64,000 bases of DNA from an uncultured Bacteroidota bacterium (GCA_903844645.1 CAIMUP010000013.1:1428-65427); one strand, 5' to 3'; positions 1,856 to 62,239 are shown, counted from the stretch's first letter. Made by a program: numbers and translations. Notes: a model not told the origin generated them from the sequence alone.

Positions 1856-2047
1856 GATTATTAGCGGAGCTCGAATAGGTATTAGAGGAGCTCAAATGGT
1901 TATTAGAGGAGCTCGAATAGGTATTAGAGGAGTTCGAATAGGTATTAGAGGAGTTCGAATAGGTATTAGAGGAGCTCTAATAGGTATTAGAGGAGCTCAA
2001 ATAGGTATTGGAAGAGCTCAAATAGGTATTAGAGGAGCTCAAATTCC
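1856..2047. repeat. 21-bp tandem repeat, about 9 copies (unit AGGTATTAGAGGAGCTCGAAT)
   Basis: Direct reading gives units at 1877+21k with single-base variants (ctcAaat, gTtcgaat, ctcTaat, ttgGaaG). The array fills the gap between the TonB receptor stop (TAA 1789-1791) and the next gene start (ATG 2078). Confidence 0.92.
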
Positions 2048-2077
2048 ATCAATTTGTATTAATAAATTAGCTGTATC

Positions 2078-2974
2078 ATGAAAAAACTACTCTTTCTCCT
2101 TGCCCTGATTCCATTCATCTTTATCGGTTGCGAGAAAGATATTGCCGTGAATTTCCCGCCGCCACCCGATTTATTGGTCATCGAAGGGCACATCGAGCCG
2201 GGCGGATTTGCCTACGTTCACGTTACGCGGAATGCCAATTATTTCGCCTCCACGAATACCGATTCGCTGTTGCAATACCTCGTTACGGATGCCATCGTGG
2301 TAGTTTCTGATGGGATATTAATGGATACTTTGAAACAGACATTCGCCCCGTATTTGGACCCTTATTTCCCTGCTCCGGTGATTTATCTGGGGCAATTAAT
2401 CATCGGGCAACCGAACCATACCTACACACTGAAAGTCATTGCCAACGGGCAAACAGTTACCGCCACGACCTCCATCCCCGGGCTTGTACCGCTCGATAGT
2501 ACCTGGTTTAAGGTGGAGAATAACCTCGACAGTTTGGGATATGTTTACGGACACATGCACGACCCCGATTCCTTGGGCAATGCCTACCGGTTTATGATCA
2601 AACGGATTGGGCATTTCTCCGATGGCAAGCAGAAGGATTTGGGATTTATTGCCGATGTGAATTCGGTATTTGATGATAAAGTAATTAATGGGCAGAGCTT
2701 TGATGGCGACTTCAACCGTCCACATCTGCCGCATGATACCTCGGTCGAGAATCACAATATCGAGAATGGATATTTCAAGAAAGGCGATACCATCGTCCTG
2801 AAATGGATGACCCTCGACCACGATCATTACAAGTTCTGGCAAACCGAAGGTATCGCCGCCAATGGCGCGGATAATCCCTTCGCCTCCCCGACCATTATCA
2901 AGAGTAATATCAAAGGCGGCTTAGGTATTTGGGGAGGCTATGGCACGACCTATGACACGATTATTGCGAAATAA
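2078..2974 (+). CDS. lipoprotein, DUF4249-like (TonB-receptor-associated)
   Basis: Signal peptide with lipobox 'IFIGC'; about 300 aa; lies immediately downstream of a TonB-dependent receptor, the usual DUF4249 context in Bacteroidota. The family assignment is from memory only. Confidence 0.45.
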   Translation: MKKLLFLLALIPFIFIGCEKDIAVNFPPPPDLLVIEGHIEPGGFAYVHVTRNANYFASTNTDSLLQYLVTDAIVVVSDGILMDTLKQTFAPYLDPYFPAPVIYLGQLIIGQPNHTYTLKVIANGQTVTATTSIPGLVPLDSTWFKVENNLDSLGYVYGHMHDPDSLGNAYRFMIKRIGHFSDGKQKDLGFIADVNSVFDDKVINGQSFDGDFNRPHLPHDTSVENHNIENGYFKKGDTIVLKWMTLDHDHYKFWQTEGIAANGADNPFASPTIIKSNIKGGLGIWGGYGTTYDTIIAK

Positions 2975-2983
2975 AAGATAACT

Positions 2984-3919
2984 ATGGAAGAAAAAGTAAA
3001 ATGTTTAATCATCGGCTCGGGTCCTGCGGGATATACAGCCGCTATTTATGCCGCCAGAGCCGATATGAAACCCGTGCTTTATCAGGGTTTGCAGCCTGGC
3101 GGTCAATTAACCATCACTACCGAAGTAGAGAACTATCCGGGCTACCCCAAGGGCACTATGGGTCCGGAGATGATGGAGGATTTCAAAGCCCAAGCCGAAC
3201 GATTCGGGACAGATATTCGATGGGGATATGCCACCTCGGTGGATTTCTCTGGTGCAGTTCATAAAGTTATTATTGATGAAACCACGACCATCTTCGCCGA
3301 TACGGTAATCATCGCAACCGGTGCTTCTGCCAAGTGGCTCGGATTGGAATCCGAACAACGACTGAATGGTTTCGGGGTATCGGCATGTGCCGTCTGCGAT
3401 GGTTTCTTTTTCAAGAAGCAAGATGTCGCCATCGTTGGTGCCGGAGATACCGCTGCCGAAGAAGCTACTTACCTCGCCAAGCTATGCAACAAGGTGTATA
3501 TGATTATTCGTCGTGATGAGATGCGAGCTTCCAAAGCCATGCAACATCGCGTGCAGAATACTGCCAACATCGAAATTATTTATAACTCCGAAACCAAAGA
3601 AATCCTTGGCGAGAAGACCGTAGAAGCCGTCTTGGTTTATGATATTAAGAACAAGGTAGAGCGGAAACTCGATGTTACTGGCTTCTTCGTCGCGATAGGT
3701 CATCAGCCCAACACCGATTTATTCAAAGGCATCCTCGACATGGATGAAAACGGCTATTTAATCACCATTCCCGGCACTACCAAAACCAATGTCGGAGGCA
3801 TTTTTGCTGCAGGCGATGTCGCTGACCATGTGTATCGCCAAGCCGTTACCGCAGCCGGAACCGGATGTATGGCAGCCATAGATGCCGAAAGATATTTAGC
3901 CGCCAAAGGCATCCATTAA
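2984..3919 (+). CDS. trxB: thioredoxin-disulfide reductase
   Basis: N-terminal FAD-binding 'IIGSGPAGYTAA', redox-active 'CAVCDG', a second dinucleotide site 'VAIVGAGDTAAEEA', and 311 aa, typical of low-Mr thioredoxin reductase. Confidence 0.9.
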   Translation: MEEKVKCLIIGSGPAGYTAAIYAARADMKPVLYQGLQPGGQLTITTEVENYPGYPKGTMGPEMMEDFKAQAERFGTDIRWGYATSVDFSGAVHKVIIDETTTIFADTVIIATGASAKWLGLESEQRLNGFGVSACAVCDGFFFKKQDVAIVGAGDTAAEEATYLAKLCNKVYMIIRRDEMRASKAMQHRVQNTANIEIIYNSETKEILGEKTVEAVLVYDIKNKVERKLDVTGFFVAIGHQPNTDLFKGILDMDENGYLITIPGTTKTNVGGIFAAGDVADHVYRQAVTAAGTGCMAAIDAERYLAAKGIH

Positions 3920-4043
3920 AAGGGGTAAAATAAATTTTGATTAGATAGCTCGCCTGCCGATCTCCTGAATGTTTTTTCTCATTACAAATTTCCTTTTCTT
4001 GTATTTTTTCGAGTTCCCCGAGGAATGAAATTTCTTTAATCGA

Positions 4044-4357
4044 GGCATTAGGAAAAAAAGCAGGGCATCAAATTACCCAATTTCATACCTTAAGTTTTTG
4101 CTCAAGGCATCACATTACCCGATGTGTGGGGTTGAGCAAAAACTTAATGCTTCACATCATCCAATTTGGAGGTATGGGAAAAAAAGTAATGCCCCACATT
4201 ACCCGATTTTGGGGTATGGCAAAAAACCTAATGCCCCACATTACCCAATGTGATGGTATGGCAAAAAACCTAATGCCCCACCTTACCCAATGCGGGGGTA
4301 TGAGCAAAAAAGTAGTGCCTCACATTACCTAATGTGGGGGTGTGATTTTCAATACAT
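4044..4357. repeat. 42-bp (2x21) tandem repeat, about 7 copies, each unit carrying a short hairpin (CCCCACATT-ACCC-AATGTGGGG type)
   Basis: The homologous 5-mer 'GGCAT/TGCNT' recurs at 4064, 4106, 4148, 4190, 4232, 4274 and 4316, exactly 42 bp apart; the ~4044 copy is only 20 bp upstream, i.e. partial. Units are degenerate but clearly homologous. The array lies in the convergent gap between trxB (+) and the symporter (-). Confidence 0.88.
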
Positions 4358-4551
4358 TCAAATATAAAATAAGAATCTCTAAAAATAGCCTCCAAGGTAG
4401 TGATCAAATAGAGCAATCAAAATAAAATAAAAAAATGATTAAATAAAATAATGAAAATTATGATAGACTTCGCAAAGTATTTTTTAATCCTTTTTATGAT
4501 AAATTCATTTACCGGGATAAATTGAAGCAATTTACCGAGGAAGGAGGTATT

Positions 4552-6069
4552 TTATAAACTCACTTTGGGATGAATTTTGTATTTTGCGATTAATAACAAG
4601 CCGATAAAAGTCAGCAGTCCGTTAATCATCAGCATCTCGAATCCGAATTGATAGGAGGTGAATAATTCTTTTGAATAAGTGTTCAGAAGGTAGCAAATTG
4701 TGGGCGGAAAAAGGGCGATGACAGGCACCAATTTATCCCTTACTTGCAGCTTCGTAAAGAGTCCGAAAACAAACAACCCGAGCAAGGGTCCGTAGGTATA
4801 ATTGGCGATGGTGAAGAGGTTATTCAGCACCGATTCTTTGATGGAGGTCTTGAAATAAACGATGACCAACAGCAAAATTATAGCGAAGCACAAATGCACC
4901 ACGCGGCGTACTTGCACTTGCTTCTTCTCGGTCCAGTTTTTTTCTCTGATACCGATAAAATCTATGCAGAAAGAGGTCGTCAAAGCGGTCAAAGCACCGT
5001 CAGCACTCGGGAAGGCTGCAGATATTAATCCGATAATGAAAAAAATACCGGAAACAGGTCCGAGAAAATGCAAGGCAATGGTCGGGAACAGGTCGTCTGA
5101 ATGCACCGGTATCGCAATGTTTTTCGCAGCAGCGAACAGGTAAAGCAATGCCCCCAAACAAAGGAACATAATGTTCACAAAGAAGAGAATAATACTGAAG
5201 GTGAACATGTTTTTTTGGGATTCTTTGAGGGTCTTGCACGAGATATTCTTTTGCATCATCTCTTGGTCTAAGCCCGTCATAGCGATAGCGATAAAAGCAC
5301 CGCCAAAGAAGTGCTTCAAGAAGAATTTTTTGTCGTTAAAATCAGTAACGAAGATGGCGGAATGCGGACGGTTTTTGATATTTGAAATCATATCGGTAAT
5401 GGAGAAGTTCAGTTCTTTCCCGATAAGATAAATCGTGATTACCACGGCTAATAACATGAAGGTTGTTTGCAAGGTATCTGTCCAAACAATCGTCTTTACG
5501 CCGCCCTGAAAGGTATAAAGTAAAATCAATACGATGAATGCCGCAACCGTTACTGTGAAAGGGATTCCCCACTCATCGAAAACGAATATCTGTAACACAT
5601 TAACCACAATATAAAGCCTGAATGACGCACCAATTACTCGCGAAAGCAGGAAGAAAAAAGCACCTGTTTTGTAACTGTATGCCCCGAAGCGTTGCAGTAG
5701 ATAGGAATAGATGGAAGTGAGGTTTAATCTATAATAAAGTGGCAGTAAGATGGTGGCGATAACAGCATACCCGACCATGTATCCTAAGACCATCTGGAAG
5801 TAAGCGAAGTGTTGCGGACCCACCCCTCCGGGTACCGACATAAAGGTTACACCGGATAGCGAAGCACCGATCATTCCGTAGGCTACCAGATACCATTTCG
5901 AGGACCTGTTGCCGATGAAGTAGGTTTCATTCGTGGCGTTGCGGCTGGTAAGATATGTGATGAGGAAAAGCACCGCAGAATACACCACCACGCAGGTTAA
6001 AAGTAAAGAAGGAGTCATTGTTTTTTTATAAGATGAGCAAAGAAACATAAAAGTATGGTAATTTTGCAA
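4552..6069 (-). CDS. sodium:solute symporter family transporter
   Basis: 505 aa, about 13 predicted transmembrane segments, glycine-rich helices typical of the SSF family. Confidence 0.7.
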   Translation of the reverse strand: MQNYHTFMFLCSSYKKTMTPSLLLTCVVVYSAVLFLITYLTSRNATNETYFIGNRSSKWYLVAYGMIGASLSGVTFMSVPGGVGPQHFAYFQMVLGYMVGYAVIATILLPLYYRLNLTSIYSYLLQRFGAYSYKTGAFFFLLSRVIGASFRLYIVVNVLQIFVFDEWGIPFTVTVAAFIVLILLYTFQGGVKTIVWTDTLQTTFMLLAVVITIYLIGKELNFSITDMISNIKNRPHSAIFVTDFNDKKFFLKHFFGGAFIAIAMTGLDQEMMQKNISCKTLKESQKNMFTFSIILFFVNIMFLCLGALLYLFAAAKNIAIPVHSDDLFPTIALHFLGPVSGIFFIIGLISAAFPSADGALTALTTSFCIDFIGIREKNWTEKKQVQVRRVVHLCFAIILLLVIVYFKTSIKESVLNNLFTIANYTYGPLLGLFVFGLFTKLQVRDKLVPVIALFPPTICYLLNTYSKELFTSYQFGFEMLMINGLLTFIGLLLIAKYKIHPKVSL

Positions 6070-6086
6070 CCTGAATCAAAGAAATC

Positions 6087-7532
6087 ATGATAGAAAAGAT
6101 AAAAGCATTTGAAGAAATAGCACGGCAACTGGAGCCGAATGCCCCTATTCGTAAGGGAGTCAGGAAGAAGGTGATAGATTATACAGAAGATTTTCTGGAT
6201 AACATTTATTCTCTGAAAGCCTACGAACAAACTGATGATCAAGGCAAAGGACTCTTCGATTCTCCCATTAATGATGTTACGATAGACATTGAGGAGGCGA
6301 TACAAATCATCTTCGAGAATGTGGATACGCAAGGATTGAATCCGGCTTCTGGCGGACATCTTGGGTATATCCCCGGTGGTGGCATCTATTATTCTGCTTT
6401 GGCAGATTATATGGCAGCTATTACCAATCGGTATGCAGGAATTTTCTTTGCCTCGCAAGGTGCGGTAAGGATGGAGAACCTGTTGATAAAATGGATGGCT
6501 AATATCGTAGGCTATGACGAAGCCGCAAGTGGAAACCTTACCACTGGCGGCAGCCTTGCCAATCTTATCGCGATAGTTACCGCCAGAGATGCCCATAATA
6601 TTAAAGCGAAAGACATCGAGAAAACCGTTATTTATTTGAGTGAGCAAGCACATCACAGCGTGGAGAAAGCCATCCGTATTGCGGGCATGAATGAATGCCA
6701 AAAACGCTTCCTTCCGATGGATGAAAGGTATCGTATCAAACCTGATGCTTTGGAAGAATATATCAAACAAGATCTATCCGATGGCTTGAAGCCCTGGTTG
6801 GTGATCGCTGCTGCCGGAACGACTGATGTTGGGGCGGTGGACCCCTTGGATAAGATAGGAACCATTGCCAATGAATACAACCTTTGGTTTCATGTGGATG
6901 GTGCTTATGGCGGCTTCTTCGCCTTGACCGATGAAGGTAAAACAATCCTCAAAGGCATCGAGAAATCTGACTCCGTAATCATGGATCCGCATAAAAGTTT
7001 GTTCCTGCCTTACGGGCTTGGCGTGGTCTTGATAAAGGACAAGAAACACCTCTACCATGCCCATCATTACTTCGCCAATTACATGCAAGACACCTTGAAA
7101 AATGCCGATGAATTATCCCCCGCAGACCTCTCGCCAGAACTTACCAAACACTACCGCAGCCTGCGATTGTGGCTCCCCCTGAAACTCCACGGCGTAGCCC
7201 CCTTCCGTGCCGCTTTGGAAGAGAAATTACTACTCGCAAAATACTTCTACGACAAGATAAAAACCACCAAAGGCTTCGAGGTATTGATAGCCCCGCAACT
7301 CTCCGTCATCATCTTCCGATACATCCCCAAAAGCGGCGATGCGAACGCCTTCAACGAACGCATCATTCAGGAAATTCACAAAGACGGACGCATCTTCTTT
7401 TCCTCCACCACCATCAACGGAAACTACATGCTGCGCCTCGCCATCCTCTCCTTCCGAACACACCTCGAAACGGTAGATTTAGCCCTCCAAATCATCAATG
7501 AAAAAGTAGCGTTATTAAACCTCAAACCTTAA
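6087..7532 (+). CDS. pyridoxal-phosphate-dependent group II decarboxylase (aromatic-L-amino-acid / glutamate decarboxylase family)
   Basis: 481 aa; PLP-lysine motif 'VIMDPHKSLFLPYGLG' (the S-x-H-K signature of group II decarboxylases); 'HVDGAYGG' region. Confidence 0.8.
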   Translation: MIEKIKAFEEIARQLEPNAPIRKGVRKKVIDYTEDFLDNIYSLKAYEQTDDQGKGLFDSPINDVTIDIEEAIQIIFENVDTQGLNPASGGHLGYIPGGGIYYSALADYMAAITNRYAGIFFASQGAVRMENLLIKWMANIVGYDEAASGNLTTGGSLANLIAIVTARDAHNIKAKDIEKTVIYLSEQAHHSVEKAIRIAGMNECQKRFLPMDERYRIKPDALEEYIKQDLSDGLKPWLVIAAAGTTDVGAVDPLDKIGTIANEYNLWFHVDGAYGGFFALTDEGKTILKGIEKSDSVIMDPHKSLFLPYGLGVVLIKDKKHLYHAHHYFANYMQDTLKNADELSPADLSPELTKHYRSLRLWLPLKLHGVAPFRAALEEKLLLAKYFYDKIKTTKGFEVLIAPQLSVIIFRYIPKSGDANAFNERIIQEIHKDGRIFFSSTTINGNYMLRLAILSFRTHLETVDLALQIINEKVALLNLKP

Positions 7533-7562
7533 AGCCTTTACATCTTCACGACCATTATTAAA

Positions 7563-7592
7563 TAAAAAAAAGTGGCATTTTTTTATGCCGCT
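7563..7592 (+). terminator. possible rho-independent terminator after the decarboxylase gene
   Basis: AAAAAAGTGGCATTTTTTTATGCCGCTTT: an imperfect GTGGCAT/ATGCCGC stem flanked by A and T runs. Confidence 0.35.
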
Positions 7593-7671
7593 TTATAAAT
7601 ATTTCTTTGATAGAAGTTGGTAAAGTGAGAAATTATTAGTAGTTTTGTGCGCTCAAATAAAAAACACATAG

Positions 7672-8652: not shown

Positions 8653-8721
8653 AAAAATAAAATGAAAAACTATTGCTTTCGGTTTAGGAAAAATGCAGGG
8701 CGGTTTAGCTTTTATATTGAC

Positions 8722-8931
8722 CTGTTTAAAGTTTATGTCGGTCTGTTTAAAGTTTGTATCGGTCTGTTTAAAGTTTAAACAGGTCTGTTTAAAGTTTGTA
8801 TCGGTCTGTTTAAAGTTTAAACAGGTCTGTTTAAAGTTTAAACAGGTCTGTTTAAAGTTTGTATCGGTCTGTTTAAAGTTTAAACAGACCTGTTTAAAAT
8901 TTGTACAGACCTGTTTAAAAACTATATTGAC
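8722..8931. repeat. 21-bp tandem repeat, 10 copies, with alternating units CTGTTTAAAGTTTGTATCGGT and CTGTTTAAAGTTTAAACAGGT
   Basis: 'CTGTTTAAA' begins at 8722, 8743, 8764, ..., 8911, exactly 21 bp apart. The second unit type contains the 19-bp palindrome CTGTTTAAAgTTTAAACAG (GTTTAAAC core). Confidence 0.92.
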
Positions 8932-9076
8932 ATAGTAAAATGTTATTAATCATAGCATTTATGCTTTTCAGAGGGTAAAATATGCAATAATTACTAAAAA
9001 TAAATCTTCAGAAAATAGTTTAATCGGAATATTATCCCGTTCTTTGCCGCCGTAAAACCAATAAATACATATTAAA

Positions 9077-9712: not shown

Positions 9713-9733
9713 TTTAAGAATTAAATAAACAGG

Positions 9734-10356: not shown

Positions 10357-10362
10357 TTGGAA

Positions 10363-15334: not shown

Positions 15335-15546
15335 GATGGTGGCAAAGAAAGGAAATTCGTGGGGCAGGGATGGAAAACTTTTTTTTCAGAGAATTGTATT
15401 TCTCCACTATTTTTAGTATCATTGCAACCTCGAACAAAAAATGAAGCCTCAAAACACATATAATAATCTCGCAAATCTCTCCAATAATTTTGGAGGTGGG
15501 GCTTGCATATTAAATAGAGTTTGTGTAAACTCGAAGCCGCCTCAAT

Positions 15547-15577
<31 letters not shown>

Positions 15578-15721
15578 CAAATTTTTTGAAATAACCAAAT
15601 CGGAGAACACTTTTTCTGGTTCGGTTCAAAAAATTTCGTTTTCCTTTTCTAATCTTTCATTAAAGTTTCCAAAAATTTCCGCGATTTTTCAGGAATCTTG
15701 GTCAAGTCGCCAGAGTTTTGA

Positions 15722-15950
15722 CCAAAGTTTCATACGCCCCAGCCAAAGTGTGCCGAACTTCAGCCAAAGTTTTGGAAACTTTGACCAAAGTCCAGCGACT
15801 TTGACCAAAGTAGATGAAGATTCGGTTGAGGTTTCTGAAACTTTGACCAAAGTGGGCTTCACCGTGGTCAAAGTTTCTGCTTTCTCGCCCAAAGTTTCCG
15901 GAAATTCCTCCAAAGTTTCCCAAAAATCCCCCAAAGTTTCTGAAACTTCG
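15722..15950. repeat. degenerate 21-bp phased repeat, about 11 units, each anchored on CCAAAGT(T)
   Basis: 'CCAAAG' recurs at 15722, 15743, 15764, 15785, 15806, 15847, 15868, 15889, 15910 and 15931, all on a 21-bp lattice with one unit skipped. The region is open in frames on both strands. Confidence 0.85.
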
Positions 15951-16076
15951 GGACCTGTAGGAAGAATATTGGCTGTAAATCAGTCCATTTCTTTCCTGAC
16001 TTCGATTTTCGAGGTCCTTTTACAAAATCCCGCTAACGGAATCCAAATAGAAATTTAATAACTTAATAAATAAACT

Positions 16077-28646: not shown

Positions 28647-28854
28647 TTCACCCTTTTGAGGGATTGTTTTAGGAACTAATACCTTGTAATTTTGCATCCT
28701 TAATTACAAACAATGGATCATTACAATCACATAGCGAATACAACGGATAGCAATCACGACAGAGGCAATGCTTCTGGAAGGTTTTTCAATGGTGGCGGTA
28801 GTGATATGGATACAAATTGTAGTTTAAACATATGCCAAAAAAACTCAAACATAT

Positions 28855-29094
28855 CTTTTAGTAACAATAAGATACCTTTTAGTAACAATAAGATACCTTT
28901 TAGTAACAATAAGATACCTTTTAGTAACAATAAGATACCTTTTAGTAACATAAAGATATGTTTTAGTAACAAAAAGATACCTTTTAGTAACAAAAAGATA
29001 CCTTTTAGTAACAAAAAGATACCTTTTAGTAACAAAAAGATATGTTTTAGTAACAAAAAGATACCTTTTAGTAACAATAAGATATGTTTTAGTT
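28855..29094. repeat. 21-bp tandem repeat, about 11.5 copies (unit CTTTTAGTAACAATAAGATAC, variants AAAAAGATAC / GATATGT)
   Basis: Units start at 28855+21k, checked at 28876; read directly. The array is stop-free in several frames, which produces spurious heptad ORFs on both strands. Confidence 0.92.
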
Positions 29095-29205
29095 TTTCTC
29101 ACCATAGTAAAAGCAATAGTTGCTATGGTGATGGGTCTTTTCAGAATGCCCACCCCTCTCCCTTGTATTCAAAACCAAGTAGTAACATAATAAAATAACA
29201 ATAAA

Positions 29206-34679: not shown

Positions 34680-34866
34680 AATGTACACGTGTACAATTCG
34701 TCCTGCAACTGTGTCGGAGGCAATGTTCGGTGTACTTTGCCCCAACACAGTTGTGTTTGCCAATTCTACATGTGTACTATTGGCAAACACAGTTACTTTT
34801 GCAGAAGTACACGTGTAGAATTGGCAAACACAACTGTGTTTGCCAAATGTACACGTGTACATTCAA
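34680..34866. promoter_or_regulatory. cluster of alternating perfect palindromes (TGTACACGTGTACA and TTGGCAAACACAACTGTGTTTGCCAA) in a divergent promoter region
   Basis: A 14-bp perfect palindrome at 34682-34695 and again at about 34849-34862 with degenerate copies between; a 26-bp perfect palindrome at 34821-34846 with half-copies at 34745-34764 and 34781-34795; GTGTAC cores about 41 bp apart. Confidence 0.6.
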
Positions 34867-35028: not shown

Positions 35029-35292
35029 ATGGCAAGATTTATCCTTATATTATTGATTATTTACGTCCTCTTCCGATTGTTTCGGCGGAGTATCTTTGTA
35101 TATACCGTCAATTCGTTTCAGAATAAGATGGAAGAACAAATGCGGAAACAACAACAACAACAAAAGAAAGAATATCAACAACAACAACGCCAAACAAATG
35201 GTAAAACCAAAGTCGAATTCATCCCTCCCGAGAAAAATAAACGCCCCCACGATACCGATGGTGAATATGTGGATTACGAAGAAATAAAATAA
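35029..35292 (+). CDS. small membrane-anchored protein, DUF4834-like
   Basis: 87 aa; N-terminal TM helix 'FILILLIIYVLFRLF' then a Gln/Lys/Glu-rich tail. The family call is from memory. Confidence 0.4.
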   Translation: MARFILILLIIYVLFRLFRRSIFVYTVNSFQNKMEEQMRKQQQQQKKEYQQQQRQTNGKTKVEFIPPEKNKRPHDTDGEYVDYEEIK

Positions 35293-37846: not shown

Positions 37847-37950
37847 GTTGAATATTTCATTCCAAAAGAAAGCCCTCCCGACATAAAATTGGGAGGGCTT
37901 CTTTTTTTAGCTAAAAGGACGATTTGGGAAGCCCGAAAAATTTTTCCGCT

Positions 37951-38202
37951 ATGAATATCTTTTGCTTCGGGATGAATATCCTTTGCTTCGGGATGAATAT
38001 CCTTTGCTTCGGGATGAATATCCTTTGCTTCGGGGTGAATATCTTTTGCTTCGGGGTGAATATCTTTTGCTTCGGGATGAATATCCTTTGCTTCGGGATG
38101 AATATCCTTTGCTTCGGGATGAATATCTTTTGCTTCGGGATGAATATCTTTTGCATCGGGATGAATATCTTTTCATCCGGCTTCAATACATTTTCATCCC
38201 GG
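37951..38202. repeat. 21-bp tandem repeat, 12 copies (unit ATGAATATCCTTTGCTTCGGG, variant ATCTTTTGCTTCGGGGTGA)
   Basis: 'ATGAATATC' begins at 37951, 37972, ..., 38161, exactly 21 bp apart. Confidence 0.92.
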
Positions 38203-38398
38203 GTTAATGTCTTACATGAACTTTTCCCCGTTATAAAACCCGATTTGGAGGGGTAAAAAGGGAGGTTTTTGGAAATTCTCCACCCTCCATTTCCCACTTT
38301 TAAGTCTCCATTCCCCATTTTCCATTCCCCATTCTTTTTCCATTGTCAGGAAATTTTATAGTTTTGCCCGCCTAACACTAAAATTATATCATAAAATA

Positions 38399-41251: not shown

Positions 41252-41284
41252 TAAAATGGACAAAAAGATGCTTTTTCTATTAAA

Positions 41285-41445
41285 TACGACTACAATGATG
41301 CCGTCATCTCCTACAATGATAGCGTCATCTACTACAATTATGCCGTCATCTACTACAATTATGCCGTCATCTACTACAATGATGGCGTCATCTACTACAA
41401 TTATGCCGTCATCTACTACAATGATGGCAACTTCGACTACACATT
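41285..41445. repeat. 21-bp tandem repeat, about 7.5 copies (unit GCCGTCATCTACTACAATTAT/GAT)
   Basis: 'CGTCATCT' occurs at 41302, 41323 and 41344+21k. The array fills the gap between the 40406 gene (stop 41251) and the 41460 gene. Confidence 0.92.
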
Positions 41446-41459
41446 TATTACATTAATTC

Positions 41460-42830
41460 ATGAAAATAATCAAAAATATAACGGGAATTTTTTTCTGCAT
41501 CGCGCTGCTGAATTCCATTGATACCGTGGCGCAGGTGAAAATTCTGGATCAAGTAGCAGGGGTGGTCGGGGATAAGGTGATTCTGCAATCCGACATCGAA
41601 TCGCAATATCAGCAATATATGCTCCAAGGCGGGGTGGATAATCCAGCCATTCGCTGCGAAATTATGTATCAGATGTTGATTAATAAACTGCTCCTGAATC
41701 AAGCAATATTAGATAGCGTAGAAGTTTCGGGCACGGCTGTAGAGGAGGAATTGGATAAACGGATGCGGTATTATATCTCCCAAATCGGCTCGCAAAAGTT
41801 GCTGGAGGAACGTATGGGAAAATCGGTATTGGAGCTGAAAGCCGACTTCAGAACGCTGATTAAAGACCAGATGCTGACGCAACAAATGCAACAAAAAATT
41901 ACGAAAGATGTGAATGCCTCGCCATCGGATGTGAAAAGTTATTACGAACACATCCCGAAGGATAGTTTGCCGAGGGTAGAATCGGAATTTGAGATACAAC
42001 AAATCGTTCGGCATATAGAAGTTACCGATGAGCAAAAAAAGGAAGTGAAGGATAAATTGGAAGGTTATAAACAAGAGATTTTGAAGGGTACTCGGGACTT
42101 TGTCGCCACTGCCGTTTTATACTCTCAAGACCCCGGTACTACTAAAAAAGGCGGTGAATTAGGCTTCTTCGGGAGGGGCGATATGCAACCTGCTTTTGAG
42201 GCTGCCGCATTCCGCCTTCGTCCGGGTGAAATATCGGATATTATTGAAACGCCGTTCGGGTATCACATCCTGCAATTGATTGAAAGAAGGGGCGAACAGA
42301 TTAATGTCAGGCATATCTTATTACATCCAAAAGTAAGCGATGATAATATTGACAAAGCGAGTAAATTTTTGGATAGTTTGAAGACGGAAATTAATAATAA
42401 AACCATCACCTTTGCCGATGCGGCGATGAAATTCTCTGATGATGCAGATACCAAGAACAATGCCGGACTGATGCAAAATGTGCAGGATGGAACAACCAAA
42501 TTTGAGGCTACCACGATGGATAAAACCCTGTTCTTCCAGATAGATAAATTGAGCATCGGGGAGCTATCGAAGCCTGTATCTTATTCTGACAGAGAGGGCA
42601 AGGCTTCGTTGCGGGTATTGATGGTGAAATCGAAAACAGCTCCGCATACCGCGAACTTGAAAGACGATTATCAGAAGATTCGCGGGGCGGCTTTGCAGGA
42701 GAAACAGAACCTCGCCTTGCTGGATTGGGTGAAGAAGAAGCGTGCTAATACGTTTGTGAATATCACGAAAGATTATCGCAAGTGCGATGCCATAAAGGAC
42801 TGGTTGAAGAATACCGCAACAACGAATTAA
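41460..42830 (+). CDS. peptidyl-prolyl cis-trans isomerase SurA-like
   Basis: Signal peptide; SurA N-domain then parvulin domain 'GGELGFFGRGDMQPAFEAAAFRL...GYHILQLIE'. Confidence 0.8.
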   Translation: MKIIKNITGIFFCIALLNSIDTVAQVKILDQVAGVVGDKVILQSDIESQYQQYMLQGGVDNPAIRCEIMYQMLINKLLLNQAILDSVEVSGTAVEEELDKRMRYYISQIGSQKLLEERMGKSVLELKADFRTLIKDQMLTQQMQQKITKDVNASPSDVKSYYEHIPKDSLPRVESEFEIQQIVRHIEVTDEQKKEVKDKLEGYKQEILKGTRDFVATAVLYSQDPGTTKKGGELGFFGRGDMQPAFEAAAFRLRPGEISDIIETPFGYHILQLIERRGEQINVRHILLHPKVSDDNIDKASKFLDSLKTEINNKTITFADAAMKFSDDADTKNNAGLMQNVQDGTTKFEATTMDKTLFFQIDKLSIGELSKPVSYSDREGKASLRVLMVKSKTAPHTANLKDDYQKIRGAALQEKQNLALLDWVKKKRANTFVNITKDYRKCDAIKDWLKNTATTN

Positions 42831-42848
42831 ATAAGAAAAATTAAGACT

Positions 42849-43817
42849 ATGGATATAAAATTTAACTCCGATGTAGAAGCAGTGGATTCCCTGGTGGGGA
42901 CTTACAAGGACCTTCGCAAAGAAATTGGGAAAGTGATTATCGGGCAAGACGATATTGTGAAGGATGTGCTGATCTCTATCTTCGGGCAGGGACATTGCTT
43001 GCTGGTGGGTGTGCCGGGCTTGGCGAAGACGCTGTTGGTGAATACGATTGCGCAGACGTTAGGCTTGACGTATAACCGGATTCAGTTTACGCCTGACTTG
43101 ATGCCGAGTGATATTATCGGGACGGAAATATTGGATGAAACTCGTAAGTTTCGGTTTATTAAAGGACCGTTGTTTGCGAATATTATCCTTGCCGATGAGA
43201 TTAACAGAACTCCACCAAAGACTCAGTCGGCGTTGTTGGAGGCGATGCAGGAACGGACTGTTACTGCTGCCGGAACGCGGTATGATTTGGGGAAGCCGTT
43301 CTTTGTGTTGGCGACGCAAAACCCGATTGAGCAGGAGGGGACTTACCCGTTGCCGGAGGCGCAATTGGATAGGTTTATGTTTAATGTGTGGTTGGATTAT
43401 CCAAAATTTGAGGAGGAGATACAGGTGGTGAAGAATACGACCTCGAATTATAAACCGGAGTTAAAAGTTATTATTCATGGGGAAGAGATTGTGTATTTTC
43501 AGGACTTGGTGAGGAGGATTCCTATTGCGGATAATGTGTTGAATTATGCGGTAACCTTGGCGCAGAAGAGCAGACCGAATACGGCATTGGCTACGGAGAT
43601 GGTGAATACTTATCTGTCGTGGGGTGCTGGTCCGAGGGCTTCGCAGTATTTGGTGATTGGGGCGAAGGTGAACGCGATATTCAATGGGAAATATTCTCCT
43701 GATATTGAGGATGTGCAGGCGGTGGCGGCGGGTATTCTGCGGCATCGTATTGTATTAAATTATAAGGCGGAAGCTGAACGGGTTTCGGTGGAGAGCATTG
43801 TTAAAAGCCTTATTTAA
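42849..43817 (+). CDS. MoxR-family AAA+ ATPase
   Basis: Walker A 'GVPGLAKT', Walker B 'LADEINR', 322 aa, the typical MoxR length. Confidence 0.9.
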   Translation: MDIKFNSDVEAVDSLVGTYKDLRKEIGKVIIGQDDIVKDVLISIFGQGHCLLVGVPGLAKTLLVNTIAQTLGLTYNRIQFTPDLMPSDIIGTEILDETRKFRFIKGPLFANIILADEINRTPPKTQSALLEAMQERTVTAAGTRYDLGKPFFVLATQNPIEQEGTYPLPEAQLDRFMFNVWLDYPKFEEEIQVVKNTTSNYKPELKVIIHGEEIVYFQDLVRRIPIADNVLNYAVTLAQKSRPNTALATEMVNTYLSWGAGPRASQYLVIGAKVNAIFNGKYSPDIEDVQAVAAGILRHRIVLNYKAEAERVSVESIVKSLI

Positions 43818-43867
43818 GAGAAGAATCCGGGGGATTCAAATCAGTTTTTGGTGTCTGGAGCAGTTTA

Positions 43868-44153
43868 ACGGCTGTTGATTGGAGAAAGTCGGCTGTTGAT
43901 TGGGGAAAGTTGACTGTTGATTGGGGAAAGTCGGCTGTTGATTGGGGAAAGTCGGCTGTTGATTGGGGAAAGTTGACTGTTGATTGGGGAAAGTCGGCTG
44001 TTGATTGGGGAAAGTCGGCTGTTGATTGGGGAAACATGGACGTAGATTGGGGAAACATGGACGTAGATTGCGGAAACATGGACGTAGATTGGGGAAACAT
44101 GGAGGTAGATTGTAGAAACATGGAGGTAGATTGCAGAAACATGGAGGTAGATG
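43868..44153. repeat. 21-bp tandem repeat, about 13.5 copies (units GTCGGCTGTTGATTGGGGAAA / GTTGACTGTTGATTGGGGAAA, decaying into CATGGACGTAGATTGGGGAAA and CATGGAGGTAGATTGCAGAAA)
   Basis: Unit starts at 43888 and 43909+21k; two clear sub-families within one array. Confidence 0.92.
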
Positions 44154-49913: not shown

Positions 49914-49925
49914 AAAGGGAAAAAA

Positions 49926-50165
49926 GCCGACCGGATTTGGGAAAGATGCGGTCGGATATTTCCTTTCTCCGGTCGGATATTTCTTTTTTCCGGTCGGATA
50001 TTTCTTTTTTCCGGTCGGATATTTCTTTTTTCCGGTCGGATATTTCTTTTTTCCGGTCGGATATTTCCTTTTTCCGGTCGGAGATTTCTTTTTTCCGGTC
50101 GGAGATTTCCTGTTTCCGGTCGGAGATTTCCTTTTTCCGGTCGGATATTTCCCGTTACCGACCAT
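49926..50165. repeat. 21-bp tandem repeat, about 11 copies (unit CCGGTCGGATATTTCTTTTTT, with GAGATTTC variants)
   Basis: 'CGGTCGG' occurs at 49948, 49969+21k; it begins immediately after the dgkA stop. Confidence 0.92.
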
Positions 50166-50299
50166 TAATTTTTGGCTGATTAACGGAAGAAAATATATCT
50201 TTGACCCCTTACCAAAAAAATGAAGCCGCAAAAAGCGATTCCGAAGGACATAAAATGAATGAAACAAAACATAATAGTAAACTTAAAACAGACAGATAA

Positions 50300-51691
<1,392 letters not shown>

Positions 51692-51721
51692 ATCCCAAAT
51701 AACCTTAATAATGATATAATT

Positions 51722-53853: not shown

Positions 53854-54368
53854 GTCATTTTGAGCCAAAACGGTACCTATTTACTGAAATTCGGTAAGGT
53901 TTTCCCGATATTCTCTGCATAATCCTACGATATTACCTTGATATTTGATTATATATCGAAGGAAATCTCTCATAAATAATCCCAAAAAAGACTTATTTAC
54001 TAAGAATGGTCTATACTTTTATCCAGCGAAACGATGGTTTCATCGGGCTAAACCATAGTTTAAACAGATATTAGACCTCTTTCATTGTTGTCTTTTCAAT
54101 GATCGTATAACAATCTCGGAGGGACGGCATCTTTTTTTATTCGGTAGTAAACGATGATTTATAATAGAGGTCTATTCTTGGGAATAACTATCTAAATCGT
54201 GTGAAATGTGATCTTATACAGGCAGTTTCGGTAGTAAATAGGGGTAGTAATGATCTCGTCCAGAGGGTATTTAATAGTGTTTGGAAGGGTTCTTTAGGTA
54301 ATAATAATGAATGTGTACATACATTTTGTTCGGTGTATATGCCGCCGAGTTATTACAATATAAATTAT

Positions 54369-54775
54369 CCGTCATCATATATGAAAACGGACAATCGTAA
54401 TAGTTATTATTGTATTAACTATTGTAATTATTGCTTTAGCAATAGTAAATATGACCATAACGATACCTTGGGCGATATTTTCTATCGTTACTGCAATAAT
54501 AACATATGTAAAAGGTATCCTTAGGATACCAATTATACGTTTTCATATATGATGACGGACGAAAAGGATAGTAAAAGCTGTTATCACGATAGTTATTGTT
54601 GTTATCACAATGGTAAAAGCGGTTATCACAATAGTTATTGCTGTTATCACAATAGTTATTGTAGTTATCACAATAGTTATTGCAGCTATTACAATTGTAA
54701 AAGCAGTTATTATAATAGCTATAACAGTATTCACGATAGCGATGACAAAAACTGTAAGTACATTCATTAGTAATA
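54369..54775. repeat. AT-rich degenerate 21-bp phased repeats (GTTATCACAATAGTTATTGCT-like) with a 21-bp inverted-repeat pair and a central 17-bp palindrome
   Basis: CCGTCATCATATATGAAAACG at 54369-54389 is the exact reverse complement of 54538-54558; palindrome GGTATCCTTAGGATACC at 54514-54530; 21-bp period clearest at 54579-54720. No convincing CDS lies between 53854 and 54978. Confidence 0.8.
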
Positions 54776-55500: not shown

Positions 55501-55609
55501 GAATAATTTGGTTAGCTTGGTTCGTATTTTGAATGGTAAAACGGGGCTTGGCTATGGATTAGTATTTAATTTTATTAAATAAATACCGCCCCCTGATAAG
55601 AATATTTTA

Positions 55610-57781: not shown

Positions 57782-58020
57782 ATAATTTGGGGCGAAATTA
57801 GTATAATTAAGGATAATAATATGATGAAGTATTTGATAAAAATAAGGATGACAAAAGGAATGCTACACGACAAATTATTTTTTCATAAACTTCAGATTCA
57901 TCTACTAAATGACTACAATTTTTATCTAATAATTTGGAGAATTAATGCCTGCAAAACGGAACAAATTAAGAGCATAAAAATGTGGCTTCTTTGGAATAAA
58001 ATTCTGAATAAGAGGGATTC

Positions 58021-58152
58021 CGACTCGGCTGCGAATGATTTCGTCGTGACTGCGACTATTTTCATCATGACTGCGACCATTTCCGACTAGATTGCGACTA
58101 TTTTCATCGTGACTGCGACCATTTCCGACTAGATTGCGACCATTTTCATCGG
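58021..58152. repeat. 21-bp tandem repeat, 6 copies (alternating TGACTGCGACCATTTCCGACT / AGATTGCGACTATTTTCATCG)
   Basis: 'TGCG' at 58030, 58051, 58072, 58093, 58114 and 58135. The array lies between the co-directional DPP-IV and TPR-membrane genes. Confidence 0.9.
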
Positions 58153-58436
58153 AAATCCTCCTATGCATGTTTTGCTTATACCAATCAACACTTTAGCTAC
58201 TTCTCAGGGCATCAAAACAGGGTTAAAACGACCAAAAACAGACTAAAAGAGGATTAAAAAGACTATTCGCGGCATGATAAAAAAAGTCCTTCTCCAACAA
58301 AGTATTTGAGACCGAAACGACGAAGAAAAGGACATCCCTCGAAACTTAACGATCCCGAATTATATCCCCATCAAGCACCCTCGGACAGGGCAAAAGTTGC
58401 CTAAATTATGGGGTGCTAAAATTACTTTTAAGAAGA

Positions 58437-60386: not shown

Positions 60387-60431
60387 AAGTTATTTGTTAT
60401 TGAAGGGGACAAAATTAAAGATTATCGGTGA

Positions 60432-61655
60432 TTACTTCTCACCTTCTAAATCATGCCCCATTTTATCCCGTTTCGTGTTGAGATAATCCTTGTTATGGAT
60501 GTTCGATTTTATTGCAATCGGTACGTTTTCCACGATCTCCAGACCATATCCTATCAAGCCCGCTCGCTTCGTCGGGTTATTCGACATTAATTTCATTTTC
60601 GTTACGCCCAAATTCCTTAATATTTGAGCACCCACCCCGTAATCCCTTTCATCCATCTTGAACCCGAGAGCAATATTTGCCTCCACCGTATCCATTCCTT
60701 CTTCTTGCAGTTTGTATGCCCTTAATTTATTCAACAATCCGATGCCCCTTCCCTCTTGATTGATGTAAACTAAAACCCCTTTCCCGGCTTCTTCAATCAT
60801 CTTCAAGGCTCTATGAAGTTGAGGTCCGCAATCGCAGCGGCAACTCCCGAAAATATCACCGGTAAGGCATGACGAATGTACCCTTACCAACACCGCTTCG
60901 TCCTTCTCCCATGTGCCTTTGATGATAGCAAGGTGCTCTTGATCGGTGTTGATTTGTTTGTAAGCGATTAACTTAAAATCGCCCCAGGCTGTCGGCAAAT
61001 TCACCGTTACTTCCTTCTCAATAAGGCTCTCTTTCGAGAGGCGGTATTTGATTAAATCCTCTATCGAAATTATCTTCAAATCGAATCGTTCGGCTATCTT
61101 GAAAAGGTTCGGCAGACGCGCCATCGTACCGTCTTCATTCATTATTTCTACCAGCACTCCCGCCGCTTCGAAGCCGGCTAAGGATGAAATATCAACCGTT
61201 GCTTCCGTATGTCCGGCTCTTCTTAAAACACCGCCATGCTTTGCTTTCAAAGGGAAAATATGTCCCGGTCTGCCCAGATCTTTTGGCATGGTTTCAGGAT
61301 TAATTAAAGCCTGAATCGTCTTGCTTCTATCGCTTGCCGAGATGCCTGTCGTGCAGCCATGTCCCAACAAATCCACCGAGATGGTGAATGGTGTTTCATG
61401 CGACGAGGTGTTCTTCGTAACCATCATATCTAATGCCAATTCCGCGCACCGTTCTTCGGTAATCGAGGCACAAATCAAGCCTCTGCCGTGGGTCGCCATA
61501 AAGTTCACAATATCAGGCGTCGCGTTGCGGGCAGCAGTTACGAAGTCGCCCTCGTTTTCGCGGTCCTCATCATCCACTACGATGATTACTTTACCTTGCC
61601 TGATGTCTTCCAGAGCCTCTTCGATGGTATTTAATTTATGTTGTACGATGTTCAT
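60432..61655 (-). CDS. ribBA: bifunctional 3,4-dihydroxy-2-butanone-4-phosphate synthase / GTP cyclohydrolase II
   Basis: N-terminal RibB region '[17 protein letters not shown]', C-terminal RibA with zinc-binding '[18 protein letters not shown]'. Confidence 0.95.
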
Positions 61656-61932
61656 GGCGTGTTTTTTAATTCTATGGCGGCGAAATTAAGAAAATTGTTG
61701 GCGTTCGATTATCCGTTCTCGATCATTCGCAATCTTTATCCAAAGATACGTTTTCTCTCATCAAAAAATACTCGGATTGGTACCAAGAAAAGCATCATGC
61801 AGATACCTTCTCTCGGTATTCATTCAGGGAATCGCGATCTGTTGGTTCAAAGACTCGTTTCTTATACACAATACTGCCTCTGTTGTATTCCATTCAGCCT
61901 CCTTTTAGCTGCTAATCGCGATTCTGAAGCCA

Positions 61933-62239
61933 AAAGTCGAGATATTGAAACAATGAATCGTACCCATTAACCACTTAATTGAAGTGAAAGACTATTTTAG
62001 TATAATGAATGACTCATTAAGTATAATGAAAGACTATTTTAGTATAATGAATGACTAAAACACTAATATGAAAGACTAATTACCAGACATGAAAGACCAC
62101 TTCATGTCTGGCAATTAGTCTTTCATATTAGTGAATTAGTCTTTTACCTTAATAAAGTAGTTAATCATTATACTAAAATAGTCTTTCACTTCAATTAAGT
62201 GGTTAATGGGTACGATTCATTGTTTCAAGGTCTCGACTT
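61933..62239. repeat. about 307-bp palindromic element: 73-bp terminal inverted repeats (2 mismatches), internal 21-bp phased TGAA(A/T)GAC repeats, and a central 73-bp palindrome with a CCAGACATG...CATGTCTGG hairpin
   Basis: Left arm 61933-62008 is the reverse complement of right arm 62165-62239. Inner inverted repeat CACTAATATGAAAGACTAATT (62061-62081) pairs with AATTAGTCTTTCATATTAGTG (62113-62133). TGAA(A/T)GAC recurs every 21-22 bp, spacings read 22/21/21/21/21. Confidence 0.9.

Follow-up and report, generated by a model that had tools for sequence, protein, structure and literature searches.

Why do 13 or 14 tandem arrays in one short stretch of a bacterial chromosome share a unit length of 21 bp and no sequence? 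Tandem repeats usually vary in unit length, which is set by chance microhomologies. The stretch analysed here (64,000 nt, hereafter the window) belongs to an uncultured Bacteroidia chromosome that carries type IX secretion genes. An earlier note on it had described at least 13 arrays with a common 21-bp period and unrelated units, and had held that such sharing of length exceeds chance.

One repeat length, many sequences

TRF and a lag-spectrum scan recover 13-14 arrays in the window, all of period 21 save one of period 42 (Table 1), in agreement with the count first given. The autocorrelation check that had been proposed, run here with a criterion of at least 55% self-match in 84-bp windows at lags 5-99, gives a signal only at 21 and its multiples 42, 63 and 84; every other lag has at most 4 positions. 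Lag 21 covers approximately 2,200 positions at the 55% threshold and approximately 2,600 at 50%, about 4% of the window. In the TRF output for the window, arrays have 6-13 copies and 0% indels, with units that abut without spacers. Inside arrays there are higher-order repeats of 42, 63 and 84 bp. The repeats are degenerate at array edges and in old arrays, where an indel is found now and then, and no proto-arrays of two to four copies were found in the window.

The units are unrelated in sequence from one array to another, as had been claimed, and none has copies outside its own array beyond chance at up to 4 mismatches. Their base composition is unbiased, and circular autocorrelation of the units gives no excess at shift 7 or 14 that would indicate a 7-bp sub-period. 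Arrays occupy about a third (∼30%) of the intergenic gaps, with similar occupancy of co-directional gaps (29%) and others (31%). Nine of the 13 arrays do lie between co-directional genes, as was remarked at the outset, but 31 of the 44 gaps in the window are co-directional, so there is no enrichment. One exact length combined with arbitrary sequence, over ∼4% of the DNA and ∼30% of the gaps, implies that something reads length and not sequence.

Table 1. Arrays and associated features of the window (arrays have a 21-bp period unless stated; arrays are named in the text by their first position)
Feature	Position	Strand	Description
Array, ~10 units (AGGTATTAGAGGAGCTCAAAT)	1835..2047		Between TonB-dependent receptor-like gene and DUF4249 gene; TRF 1859-2044, 8.9 copies, 90% matches, no indels
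Gap-filling ORF over array 1835	1791..2081	+	ATG shares a base with upstream stop (TAATG); stop overlaps downstream start (ATGA)
42-bp array, ~7 units	4044..4357		Between convergent genes; TRF 4111-4341, period 42, 5.5 copies; no lag-21 signal; unit is a 9-bp-stem hairpin plus A/T run, terminator-like on minus strand
Array, 11 units	8700..8931		63-bp higher-order repeat; TRF 8711-8919; one variant of the unit is almost a perfect palindrome (CCTGTTTAAAGTTTAAACAGG)
Degenerate array, 11 units	15722..15952		Inside orphan ORF 15441-16058; weak yet genuine, highest lag-21 match 0.71, one 1-nt phase slip, conserved CAAAGT anchor
Array, 12 units (GTAACAAWAAGATACCTTTTA)	28840..29093		TRF 28847-29093, 92% matches
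Intrinsic terminator of gene 35324-37846	37870..37909	+	12-bp stem, 7 G-C pairs, T-run; directly upstream of array 37951
Array, 12.5 units	37951..38213		Between intrinsic terminator and next gene; TRF 96% matches
Array, 7.5 units	41289..41447		Between 268-aa gene and SurA-like gene; TRF 41289-41426
66-aa gap-filling ORF over array 41289	41256..41456	+	Begins 4 nt past upstream stop, ends 3 nt before downstream ATG
Array, 13.5 units	43869..44153		Two sub-families with GATTGGGGAAA in common; TRF 43869-44152
Array, 11 units	49941..50171		TRF 49949-50152, 95% matches
Array, 9 units	51499..51690		TRF 51563-51690; covers final 46 nt of aminotransferase gene 50300-51544 and fills gap to next gene
Complex region, ~17 units	54386..54742		TRF 54568-54722; inverted pair 54368-54559, then direct array 54554-54742
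Array, 6.6 units	58018..58156		42-bp higher-order repeat; between two minus-strand genes; TRF 58029-58151
Two inverted arrays forming ~306 bp palindrome	61930..62243		TRF 61985-62057 and 62116-62200; arms 61934-62058 and 62115-62239 are 86% complementary

A lineage-specific trait

The preference extends beyond the window. In 153 kb of DNA from this species together with four relatives, the period is 21 or 42 in 27 of 28 non-coding arrays, compared with 2 of 23 in 1.48 Mb from other Bacteroidota, and the density of such arrays differs ∼130-fold between clade and outgroup. Out of sample, the 7.9 kb next to the window holds two additional 21-bp arrays. These counts uphold the claim that the shared length exceeds chance; the period-21 observation is stronger than first stated, and one length shared by unrelated arrays reflects neither chance nor ordinary slippage.

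Arrays of 21 bp occur in relatives L086, L089, L092, L095 and L101 and are absent from L102, L103 and L110 (GyrA 71-74% identical). The trait is clade-wide and lineage-specific, with a sharp boundary of presence and absence between close relatives. Are the arrays internal coding repeats of the flanking genes, a possibility raised in the earlier note? In relatives the orthologous junctions are array-free and the flanking genes intact. The site of array 41289 is a 12-bp gap without an array in L095, the genes flanking array 51499 are only 3 bp apart in L089, again with no array, and orthologous junctions in L086 and L087 are likewise empty. Comparison with relatives did not trace the array units to the sequence of these empty sites. 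Every array, with its own unit, was born separately where relatives have an empty site, and positions are not conserved at orthologous sites among relatives whose proteins are ∼70-90% identical. The empty sites permit the births to be reconstructed.

Copy-number change and assembly support

Copy number was compared across assemblies, a check that had been suggested earlier. Relative to the window, assembly L081 has 168 bp (8 units) less in array 37951 and 63 bp (3 units) less in array 49941, and L105 has one unit (+21 bp) more in array 54386; all the differences are whole units, although they may in part reflect short-read collapse, the two largest affecting the arrays of highest homogeneity. 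Expansion and contraction keep the register and involve one to several units at a time. Together with head-to-tail units in the range of 10-100 bp without spacers, such whole-unit differences are those of a minisatellite or VNTR, with the proviso of collapse for the most homogeneous arrays.

Could the arrays themselves be an artefact of assembly, as when a de Bruijn graph loops at a k-mer size of 21? The number 21 is a frequent starting k-mer size in assemblers, scaffolds have N-gaps within arrays, and short-read contigs terminate in arrays, among them at the palindrome 61930-62243, within which contig L104 begins. However, identical arrays and unit variants are recovered from several samples and pipelines (k141 contigs, scaffolds and Logan contigs), the arrays contain point variants and 42-84-bp higher-order structure, and relatives from other projects have 21-bp arrays of their own. 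An artefact is extremely improbable.

Translation, RNA and specific binding

A unit of 21 bp is also seven codons, and the earlier note had offered translated heptad micro-ORFs or linkers as a candidate. Its statement that several arrays exactly fill the intergenic gap stands for ORFs 1791-2081 and 41256-41456, whose starts and stops are coupled to the neighbouring genes, and in part for 51498-51719 and 28713-29198; at tight operon junctions, gap-filling ORFs span three or four arrays. ORF 1791-2081 encodes 96, 117 or 124 residues in three assemblies, differing by 7 and 21 residues between samples, and is intact in all three length alleles, each of which keeps both overlaps with the neighbours. 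Some array ORFs are also predicted by gene callers. Against translation, a search of 1.84 billion representative proteins found no homologue of ORF 15441-16058, and one of 5.8 billion clusters found none of the 66-aa ORF 41256-41456; unit variants in open frames are mostly non-synonymous, and differences between units show no bias towards any one codon position. These results for the two ORFs searched and for the variants reject a coding repeat of a conserved protein, such as a heptad repeat, and leave the proposed micro-ORFs unsupported.

The frames themselves, open at no more than background level, point the same way. The gene strand has no excess of open frames (11 of 27, compared with 8 of 27 on the other strand), and the description of all arrays as stop-free in several frames on both strands does not hold in general: arrays 4044, 54386 and 61930 lack a fully open frame altogether, and arrays 1835, 51499 and 58018 each have a single one. 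A strong terminator precedes one array, and other multiples of three are missing as periods, an absence that coding constraint alone would not predict. It is thus improbable that the arrays are translated as seven-residue-repeat micro-proteins or linkers with a function of their own.

We are similarly sceptical that the arrays act as RNA, whether as terminating hairpins, as stabilisers of upstream mRNA or as regulatory or scaffold RNAs. Arrays internal to operons must be transcribed, the 42-bp units at 4044-4357 resemble tandem minus-strand terminators, and several units hold short hairpins, including those at 5945-6151 of relative L095. Nevertheless many units are hairpin-free, at least one array follows a strong terminator, and an RNA role would leave the fixed 21-nt period without a reason. 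No match to an Rfam family was found at gathering thresholds over the whole window, which rejects a known RNA family.

The period also recalls plasmid iterons, which are few direct repeats of ∼17-22 bp beside a rep gene and origin, with a spacing of about two helical turns that puts bound proteins on one face of the helix. Each array might then be a set of iteron-like sites for its own sequence-specific DNA-binding protein, and short anchors are indeed kept at 21-bp spacing in older arrays (CAAAGT at 15722, ATGAAAGAC at 61972 and the motif shared by both sub-families at 43869). The likeness lies in unit length and two-turn spacing; the arrays here occupy dozens of chromosomal loci with differing sequences, and there is no rep-like gene among the annotated genes of the window. 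More than two dozen unrelated units in 150 kb would require as many specific proteins, conserved positions in units show no significant clustering overall (Fisher p = 0.06), and arrays are unconserved between relatives. We regard this as highly improbable.

What sets the length?

Our preferred reading, held tentatively and short of probable, is that the arrays are non-coding, fast-turnover minisatellites of one uncultured Bacteroidia lineage, whose unit length is set by a seeding bias or a two-turn constraint. Growth and shrinkage would occur through misaligned replication or unequal exchange between units; since either process keeps the starting period, the shared period would be set at seeding. 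We favour a seeding bias, specific to this lineage, whose step is two helical turns (21 bp, with 42 bp as four turns), together with a frame filter at gene ends and tight operon junctions, where only frame-neutral arrays that keep a bridging ORF would survive. The bridging ORFs 1791-2081, 41256-41456 and 51498-51719 are consistent with such a filter, as is the persistence of the first in its three length alleles. The arrays would then need no function of their own. We know of no mechanism with a 21-bp step. It is possible, if on balance doubtful, that a process able to measure two helix turns was acquired in this lineage. This would be either a duplication or repair machine that copies exactly 21 bp wherever it acts, regardless of sequence, in line with the length-measuring candidate of the earlier note, or a chromosome-organising system that selects helically phased DNA independently of sequence.

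Selection for helical phasing fits the same facts equally well. Here the arrays would be structural DNA, selected for period and not for sequence: repetition at 21 bp would stack small intrinsic bends on one face of the helix to give a curved or wrap-ready segment, on which a nucleoid-associated protein or gyrase might sit or which might anchor supercoils or plectonemes between transcription units. The periods are only 21 and 42, as expected for even multiples of 10.5 bp, and three arrays lie just past terminators. In a wedge model, strong curvature is predicted for the arrays: they contain 82% of the top-1% curved 126-bp windows, 11 of 13 fall within the top 5%, and array 28840 is the most curved segment of the window. 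The predicted ratio of end-to-end to contour length is 0.60 at period 21, compared with 0.91 at 20 and 0.83 at 22, where curvature is largely lost. Units are predicted to bend by 19.5 degrees, compared with 15.9 for random 21-mers of the window (p = 0.03), and dyad symmetry is modestly enriched (mean score 4.05, compared with 3.44 in shuffles, p < 0.01). The phased binding platform that had been proposed is compatible with the data, though only through this model calculation.

However, the predicted curvature is largely a consequence of the period itself, the extra bend of the real units is marginal, several units have no dyad, and no curvature is predicted for the 42-bp array or for array 8700. 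The lack of conservation at orthologous sites, with decay by indels, argues against sustained selection, and co-directional and other gaps are filled about equally. Selected structural DNA therefore seems to us rather unlikely.

Whatever sets their length, the arrays remodel the 3′ ends of genes and alter protein C-termini, create orphan ORFs and spurious gene calls, and break short-read assemblies; they are also ready VNTR markers for an uncultured organism. If either two-turn process is real, it would imply hundreds of unrelated 21-bp arrays genome-wide and a new principle of bacterial genome architecture.

Comparison with known systems

The same pattern, a fixed 21-bp unit with unrelated sequences, was not found in the literature searched. 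CRISPR repeats are 23-47 bp long and are separated by unique spacers of similar length; a CRISPR array is rejected here, where units abut without spacers at a period of just 21 bp. Two units had no viral match in 2.9 million viral contigs. Mycobacterial MIRU-VNTRs are tandem units of 40-100 bp in operon gaps that form a related family and vary in copy number. Their small ORFs overlap flanking stop and start codons, with which the ORFs at 1791-2081 and 41256-41456 may be compared, but the units here are unrelated and of 21 bp.

The REP/BIME elements of enterobacteria resemble the present arrays in lying between genes, frequently right behind a gene or between a convergent pair. They are also partly palindromic; here dyad symmetry is enriched on average but missing from several units. 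Binding of gyrase or nucleoid proteins and stabilisation of upstream mRNA have been proposed for them. REPs form a single family of dispersed sequences, moved by a dedicated transposase, whereas the arrays have no common sequence and consist of strictly head-to-tail units of fixed period; such a family is rejected by the lack of dispersed unit copies.

BrickBuilt is a MITE with an internal minisatellite from Porphyromonas gingivalis (PMC4596501). Its multiple mobile copies end in inverted repeats and share a single repeat sequence, with a unit of ∼20-odd bp and no spacers. It offers a spacer-free minisatellite of similar unit length in a member of the Bacteroidota. The arrays here differ in sharing neither ends nor units: their flanks revealed no terminal inverted repeats, target-site duplications or common motif, and flank comparisons at the null level for 19 of 21 arrays reject a MITE of this kind.

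Cyanobacterial STRRs are intergenic heptamer tandem repeats. In the SPADE survey heptamers were the commonest intergenic tandem repeats of prokaryotes, a preference left without explanation (PMC6344855); they share with the present case one preferred unit length over many intergenic arrays, and three such units would span 21 bp. The relatives themselves have two small heptamer arrays. The TAACTGA repeats have one sequence at all loci (PMC4679880), whereas the arrays here have none in common, and STRR-like repeats are rejected by the absence of a 7-bp sub-period. The old puzzle of period preference in prokaryotic intergenic repeats is nevertheless made testable by this lineage.

The tandem repeats of Borg extrachromosomal elements are likewise pervasive and specific to a genome type, each region having its own sequence and a recent, independent origin; they vary in copy number within populations, lie between genes, within ORFs or across ORF ends, are flanked by partial units, and cause assemblies to collapse or contigs to terminate (PMC9879509). 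The present lineage, too, has many independent, sequence-unique, recent arrays in one genome type. Borg repeats differ in being near-perfect and A-rich with varied unit lengths (PMC9879509); the arrays here are fixed at 21 or 42 bp, of unbiased composition and hosted by a bacterial chromosome, so that a Borg-like spread of lengths and A-richness is rejected (27 of 28 non-coding arrays). Borg tandem repeats and prokaryotic heptamer repeats are the closest analogues of this system.

Arrays of one period and unrelated sequence

The intergenic tandem arrays of this window are sequence-unique, lineage-specific 21-bp minisatellites. Tandem Repeats Finder recovers every array for which the earlier note gave coordinates, and it assigns a period of 21 bp to all arrays of three or more copies in the window except 4111-4341, whose period is 42 bp without a 21-bp sub-period. 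Within the window, the excess at 21 and 42 bp that had been predicted is borne out by a lag scan (self-match at each lag from 5 to 99, in 84-bp windows). At a threshold of at least 55%, only lags 21, 42, 63 and 84 exceed a handful of positions in the window, all others giving four or fewer; lag 21 accounts for some 2,200 positions at this level and some 2,600 when the threshold is lowered to 50%, or about 4% of the window. Printed in a 21-bp register, the units run head to tail, clean inside the arrays and degenerate at their edges. Array 15722-15952 is weak but real, with a lag-21 match of up to 0.71 and one 1-nt phase slip.

Consensus units are unrelated between arrays, and no unit has copies beyond its own array above chance in the window, ruling out a dispersed family. 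Circular autocorrelation gives no excess at shifts of 7 or 14, so the units are not diverged heptamer triplets, and a conserved anchor joined to a variable half is overall not significant within units. The arrays are not CRISPRs, having no spacers between units, and the two units tested as phage-derived spacers matched nothing in viral contigs. A mobile element is likewise rejected, since the flanks have no common motif, terminal inverted repeats or target-site duplications. The only recurring flank piece is a generic A-rich start context, TAAAATGG, and flank repeats are at the null level except at array 54386 and at L095 19105 (L095 being a relative's contig), where the flanks are inverted units. 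Assembly artefact, an unlikely explanation, was discarded because the arrays turn up again in other samples and pipelines, with variants inside them.

No proto-arrays of two to four copies, at any period, were found in the window. Its only low-copy 21-bp repeats, at 38287-38334 and 35145-35184, are described in the table, as is a threefold 41-42-bp repeat that may belong to the 42-bp class as well or form a cluster of operators.

Features of the window and of relatives' contigs (window coordinates unless a contig is named)
Location	Feature	Upstream side or content	Downstream side or setting
1791-2081	Bridging ORF	ATG shares a base with upstream stop	Stop overlaps downstream ATG (ATGA)
28713-29198	Bridging ORF	Starts 66 nt past upstream stop	Ends 7 nt before ATG
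41256-41456	Bridging ORF	Starts 4 nt past upstream stop	Ends 3 nt before ATG
51498-51719	Bridging ORF	Starts within 3' end of upstream gene	Ends 2 nt before ATG
4044-4357	Array of 42-bp units	9-bp-stem hairpin then T-run in each unit, minus strand	
15547-15574	Microsatellite	Perfect (AC)14	Divergent gap shared with array 15722
34744-34861	41-42-bp unit, three copies	Two long palindromes per unit (GGCAAACACAGTTGTGTTTGCC, TGTACACGTGTACA)	Divergent gap, genes 32104-34497 / 35324-37846
35145-35184	21-bp repeat, 1.9 copies	Low complexity (GAAACAACAACAACAACAAAA)	Within small DUF4834-like gene upstream of 35324
37870-37909	Strong intrinsic terminator		Directly upstream of an array
38287-38334	Weak 21-bp repeat, 2.3 copies	CCATTCCCCACTTT...	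75 bp past array 37951
54302-54329 / 54745-54772	28-nt inverted repeat	71% complementary	Encloses entire 54386-54742 array region; sole MITE-like outline among arrays
61934-62239	Palindrome, ~306 bp	Pair of inverted 21-bp arrays with 86% complementary arms	Short-read contigs begin or stop within it
24001-26000	High local GC skew	0.32	Within gyrA
42001-44000	High local GC skew	0.28	SurA/MoxR region
L089 1-3202	Very large protein, 1,776 aa as called	Collagen-like GXY repeats; DNA periods 9, 18, 45, 99	
L089 9824-9874	Small heptamer array	TGTTCAC, five copies	
L095 18777-18812	Small heptamer array	TCATTAT, five copies	
L101 4295-4874	21-bp array	At least 27 units (lower bound, short-read assembly); two 100-N scaffold gaps inside	Begins right after intrinsic terminator

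A trait of one clade

The window is ordinary chromosomal DNA, with gyrA, ffh, ribBA, efp, SurA/PpiC chaperones and several type IX secretion substrates bearing Por_Secre_tail, CHU_C or SprB domains. Its cumulative GC skew climbs throughout, consistent with one replichore. The nearest relatives of its GyrA that carry a name share about 70% identity with it and are only 'Bacteroidia bacterium' MAGs and Sphingobacteriales. Among the MoxR matches listed from GTDB species representatives, the best is 72-73% identical. A cyanobacterial origin, or repeats of the STRR kind, is rejected by the absence of HIP1 sites from the window, by the Bacteroidota type IX secretion genes and by the lack of a 7-bp sub-period.

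The window species, with the same arrays, is present in several independent metagenome assemblies, and its relatives have arrays of their own, each with a new unit sequence. Several 21-bp arrays occur on contigs L089, L092 and L095 (GyrA/BioF at least 90% and SurA 82% identical to those of the window), two 21-bp regions on L101 (GyrA 77%), one of them at least 580 bp with N-gaps, and one array of 13 copies on L086 (SurA 69%). There are none on L102, L103 and L110 (GyrA 71-74%) or on L096-L100 (SurA about 40%). When arrays of at least three copies and a period of at least 8 are pooled, the clade (the window species and four relatives) has 35 arrays in 152.8 kb, 27 of them of period 21 or 42 (26 and one, respectively), compared with 2 of 23 in 1.48 Mb of other Bacteroidota, where the periods are scattered. 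The anticipated enrichment of 21 and 42 bp over other lengths is present in this sample. Seven of the eight remaining clade arrays lie inside protein-coding genes (periods 9, 45, 33 and 156), and the eighth is an A-rich 15-bp low-complexity run. Outside this sample, the 7.9 kb immediately left of the window, taken from another assembly, hold two arrays between genes, each with a period of 21. The 21-bp arrays characterise the clade and are not peculiar to the window.

The small heptamer arrays of L089 and L095 are scored by Tandem Repeats Finder at period 21 too, a possible hint of a link between 7- and 21-bp repeats.

Birth, turnover and copy number

The arrays are not found again at the orthologous sites of relatives. 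The gap between a 268-aa gene and a SurA-like gene is 208 bp in the window, where it holds array 41289, compared with 12 bp in L095 and 51 bp in the relative's contig L087, and in L086 the two genes overlap. An 8-amino-7-oxononanoate synthase-like aminotransferase (50300-51544) is followed by an array in the window and lies 3 bp from the next gene in L089. The two proteins (414 aa in the window, 417 aa at L089 10001-11254) are at least 90% identical, and their roughly 15 C-terminal residues differ entirely because the array has replaced, and now encodes, about the last 15 codons. The orthologous junctions in L095 and L089 are empty and do not show the window's arrays as internal coding repeats of the flanking genes. 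No derivation of the units from the relatives' empty-site sequence is detectable.

Higher-order repeats of 42, 63 and 84 bp are common inside arrays, showing amplification by multi-unit blocks. When assemblies of the window species are compared, arrays are shorter or longer by exact multiples of 21 (-168, -63 and +21 bp). The two largest differences fall in the most homogeneous arrays, which short-read assembly is likely to have collapsed, and the +21-bp difference in a heterogeneous one. Three samples give lengths of 96, 117 and 124 residues for the ORF over array 1835, and the ORF over a neighbouring array has 74 or 88. Arrays are born at empty sites, change length in register and are quickly lost on an evolutionary scale. 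In-register slippage preserves any starting period, from which we infer that the common period is imposed at seeding or by survival.

Placement and reading frames

The gene map of the window has 45 genes and 44 gaps, 13 of which hold an array. The location between co-directional genes that the earlier note pointed out proves to be at the background rate (9/13 array gaps, 31/44 of all gaps), and a bias toward the upstream stop codon is rejected at five of nine cases. The arrangement of an array just past a terminator is repeated in L101 and L095, and further arrays occupy very short gaps within apparent operons. Between convergent genes there are three arrays, made of hairpins or inverted arrays; the one at 4044-4357 resembles a tandem series of five to seven intrinsic terminators that follows a minus-strand symporter gene. 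RNA elements are an unlikely reading of the arrays. No tRNAs, Rfam matches or other known RNA families were found in the window.

Open frames are not in excess, contrary to the idea that all arrays are stop-free in several frames on both strands: the nine co-directional arrays have 11 of 27 sense and 8 of 27 antisense frames open, and three arrays have no open frame. Unit-to-unit variation in the open frames is largely non-synonymous and not focused on one codon position, and functional peptides are an unlikely explanation. A search of 1.84 billion representative proteins gave no homologue of the 205-aa ORF at 15441-16058, around array 15722; this ORF is either spurious or a gene born from the repeat. 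Nor did 5.8 billion clusters yield a homologue of the 66-aa ORF across array 41289. A relative whose SurA is 71% identical to the window's also has a 66-aa ORF called at the matching junction (contig of P0003, sample ERZ1426548, 3313-3513), which, given that search, is apparently dissimilar.

A sense ORF spans the tightest gaps from one gene to the next (table), and these bridging ORFs look non-random. Both overlaps of 1791-2081 are preserved in all three length alleles, and by our rough estimate two doubly coupled ORFs among nine arrays would be unlikely by chance. A frame filter in operons would explain this most simply: the surviving arrays would be those that let ribosomes read on to the next start, so that the unit would have to be divisible by three. 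Such a filter alone does not account for the absence of 18, 24 and 27.

Why 21 bp?

In B-DNA 21 bp make two turns and 42 bp four, and no smaller whole number of base pairs is in phase with the 10.5-bp helix. In a Bolshoy-Trifonov wedge model, whose parameters and figures here are approximate, tandem copies of any 21-mer sum their net bend in phase. Arrays contain 82% of the 126-bp windows in the top 1% for curvature, and 11 of the 13 arrays rank in the top 5%. The same units resized to 20 or 22 bp lose most of their modelled curvature, which is mainly an effect of the period. The bend of real units exceeds that of random window 21-mers marginally (19.5 versus 15.9 degrees, p = 0.03). Dyad symmetry in the units is modestly enriched, though not universal (4.05 versus 3.44, p < 0.01). 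Iteron-like sites are an unlikely reading.

We lean, with less than even confidence, towards a seeding bias of two helical turns peculiar to this lineage, combined with mostly neutral arrays and the operon frame filter. Seeding would favour a two-helical-turn step, and the arrays would thereafter be mostly neutral. The main rival, selection for helically phased structural DNA, accounts for 21 and 42 bp as well as a seeding bias does. Array positions are not conserved, arrays decay by indels and their phylogenetic onset is sharp, all of which argues against long-term selection on each array. We give the structural rival a lower probability than the seeding bias.

Comparison with known systems

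Full-text searching of the literature gave no description of a 21-bp-specific repeat class. We file the arrays among minisatellites, a known kind, while noting the possibility that they reflect a new length-measuring process. REP/BIME, MIRU, BrickBuilt repeats and plasmid iterons each match in one or two traits and fail on common sequence or architecture. The nearest precedent for one length across arrays is the intergenic heptamer repeats, the most abundant intergenic repeats in a SPADE survey of 7,006 genomes and unexplained there (PMC6344855), from which the arrays differ in that their units are not heptamer-based. The nearest analogue is the tandem repeats of Borgs (PMC9879509), which are likewise pervasive, sequence-unique and quick to turn over, have partial units at their flanks and break contigs, but differ in their varied unit lengths and A bias.
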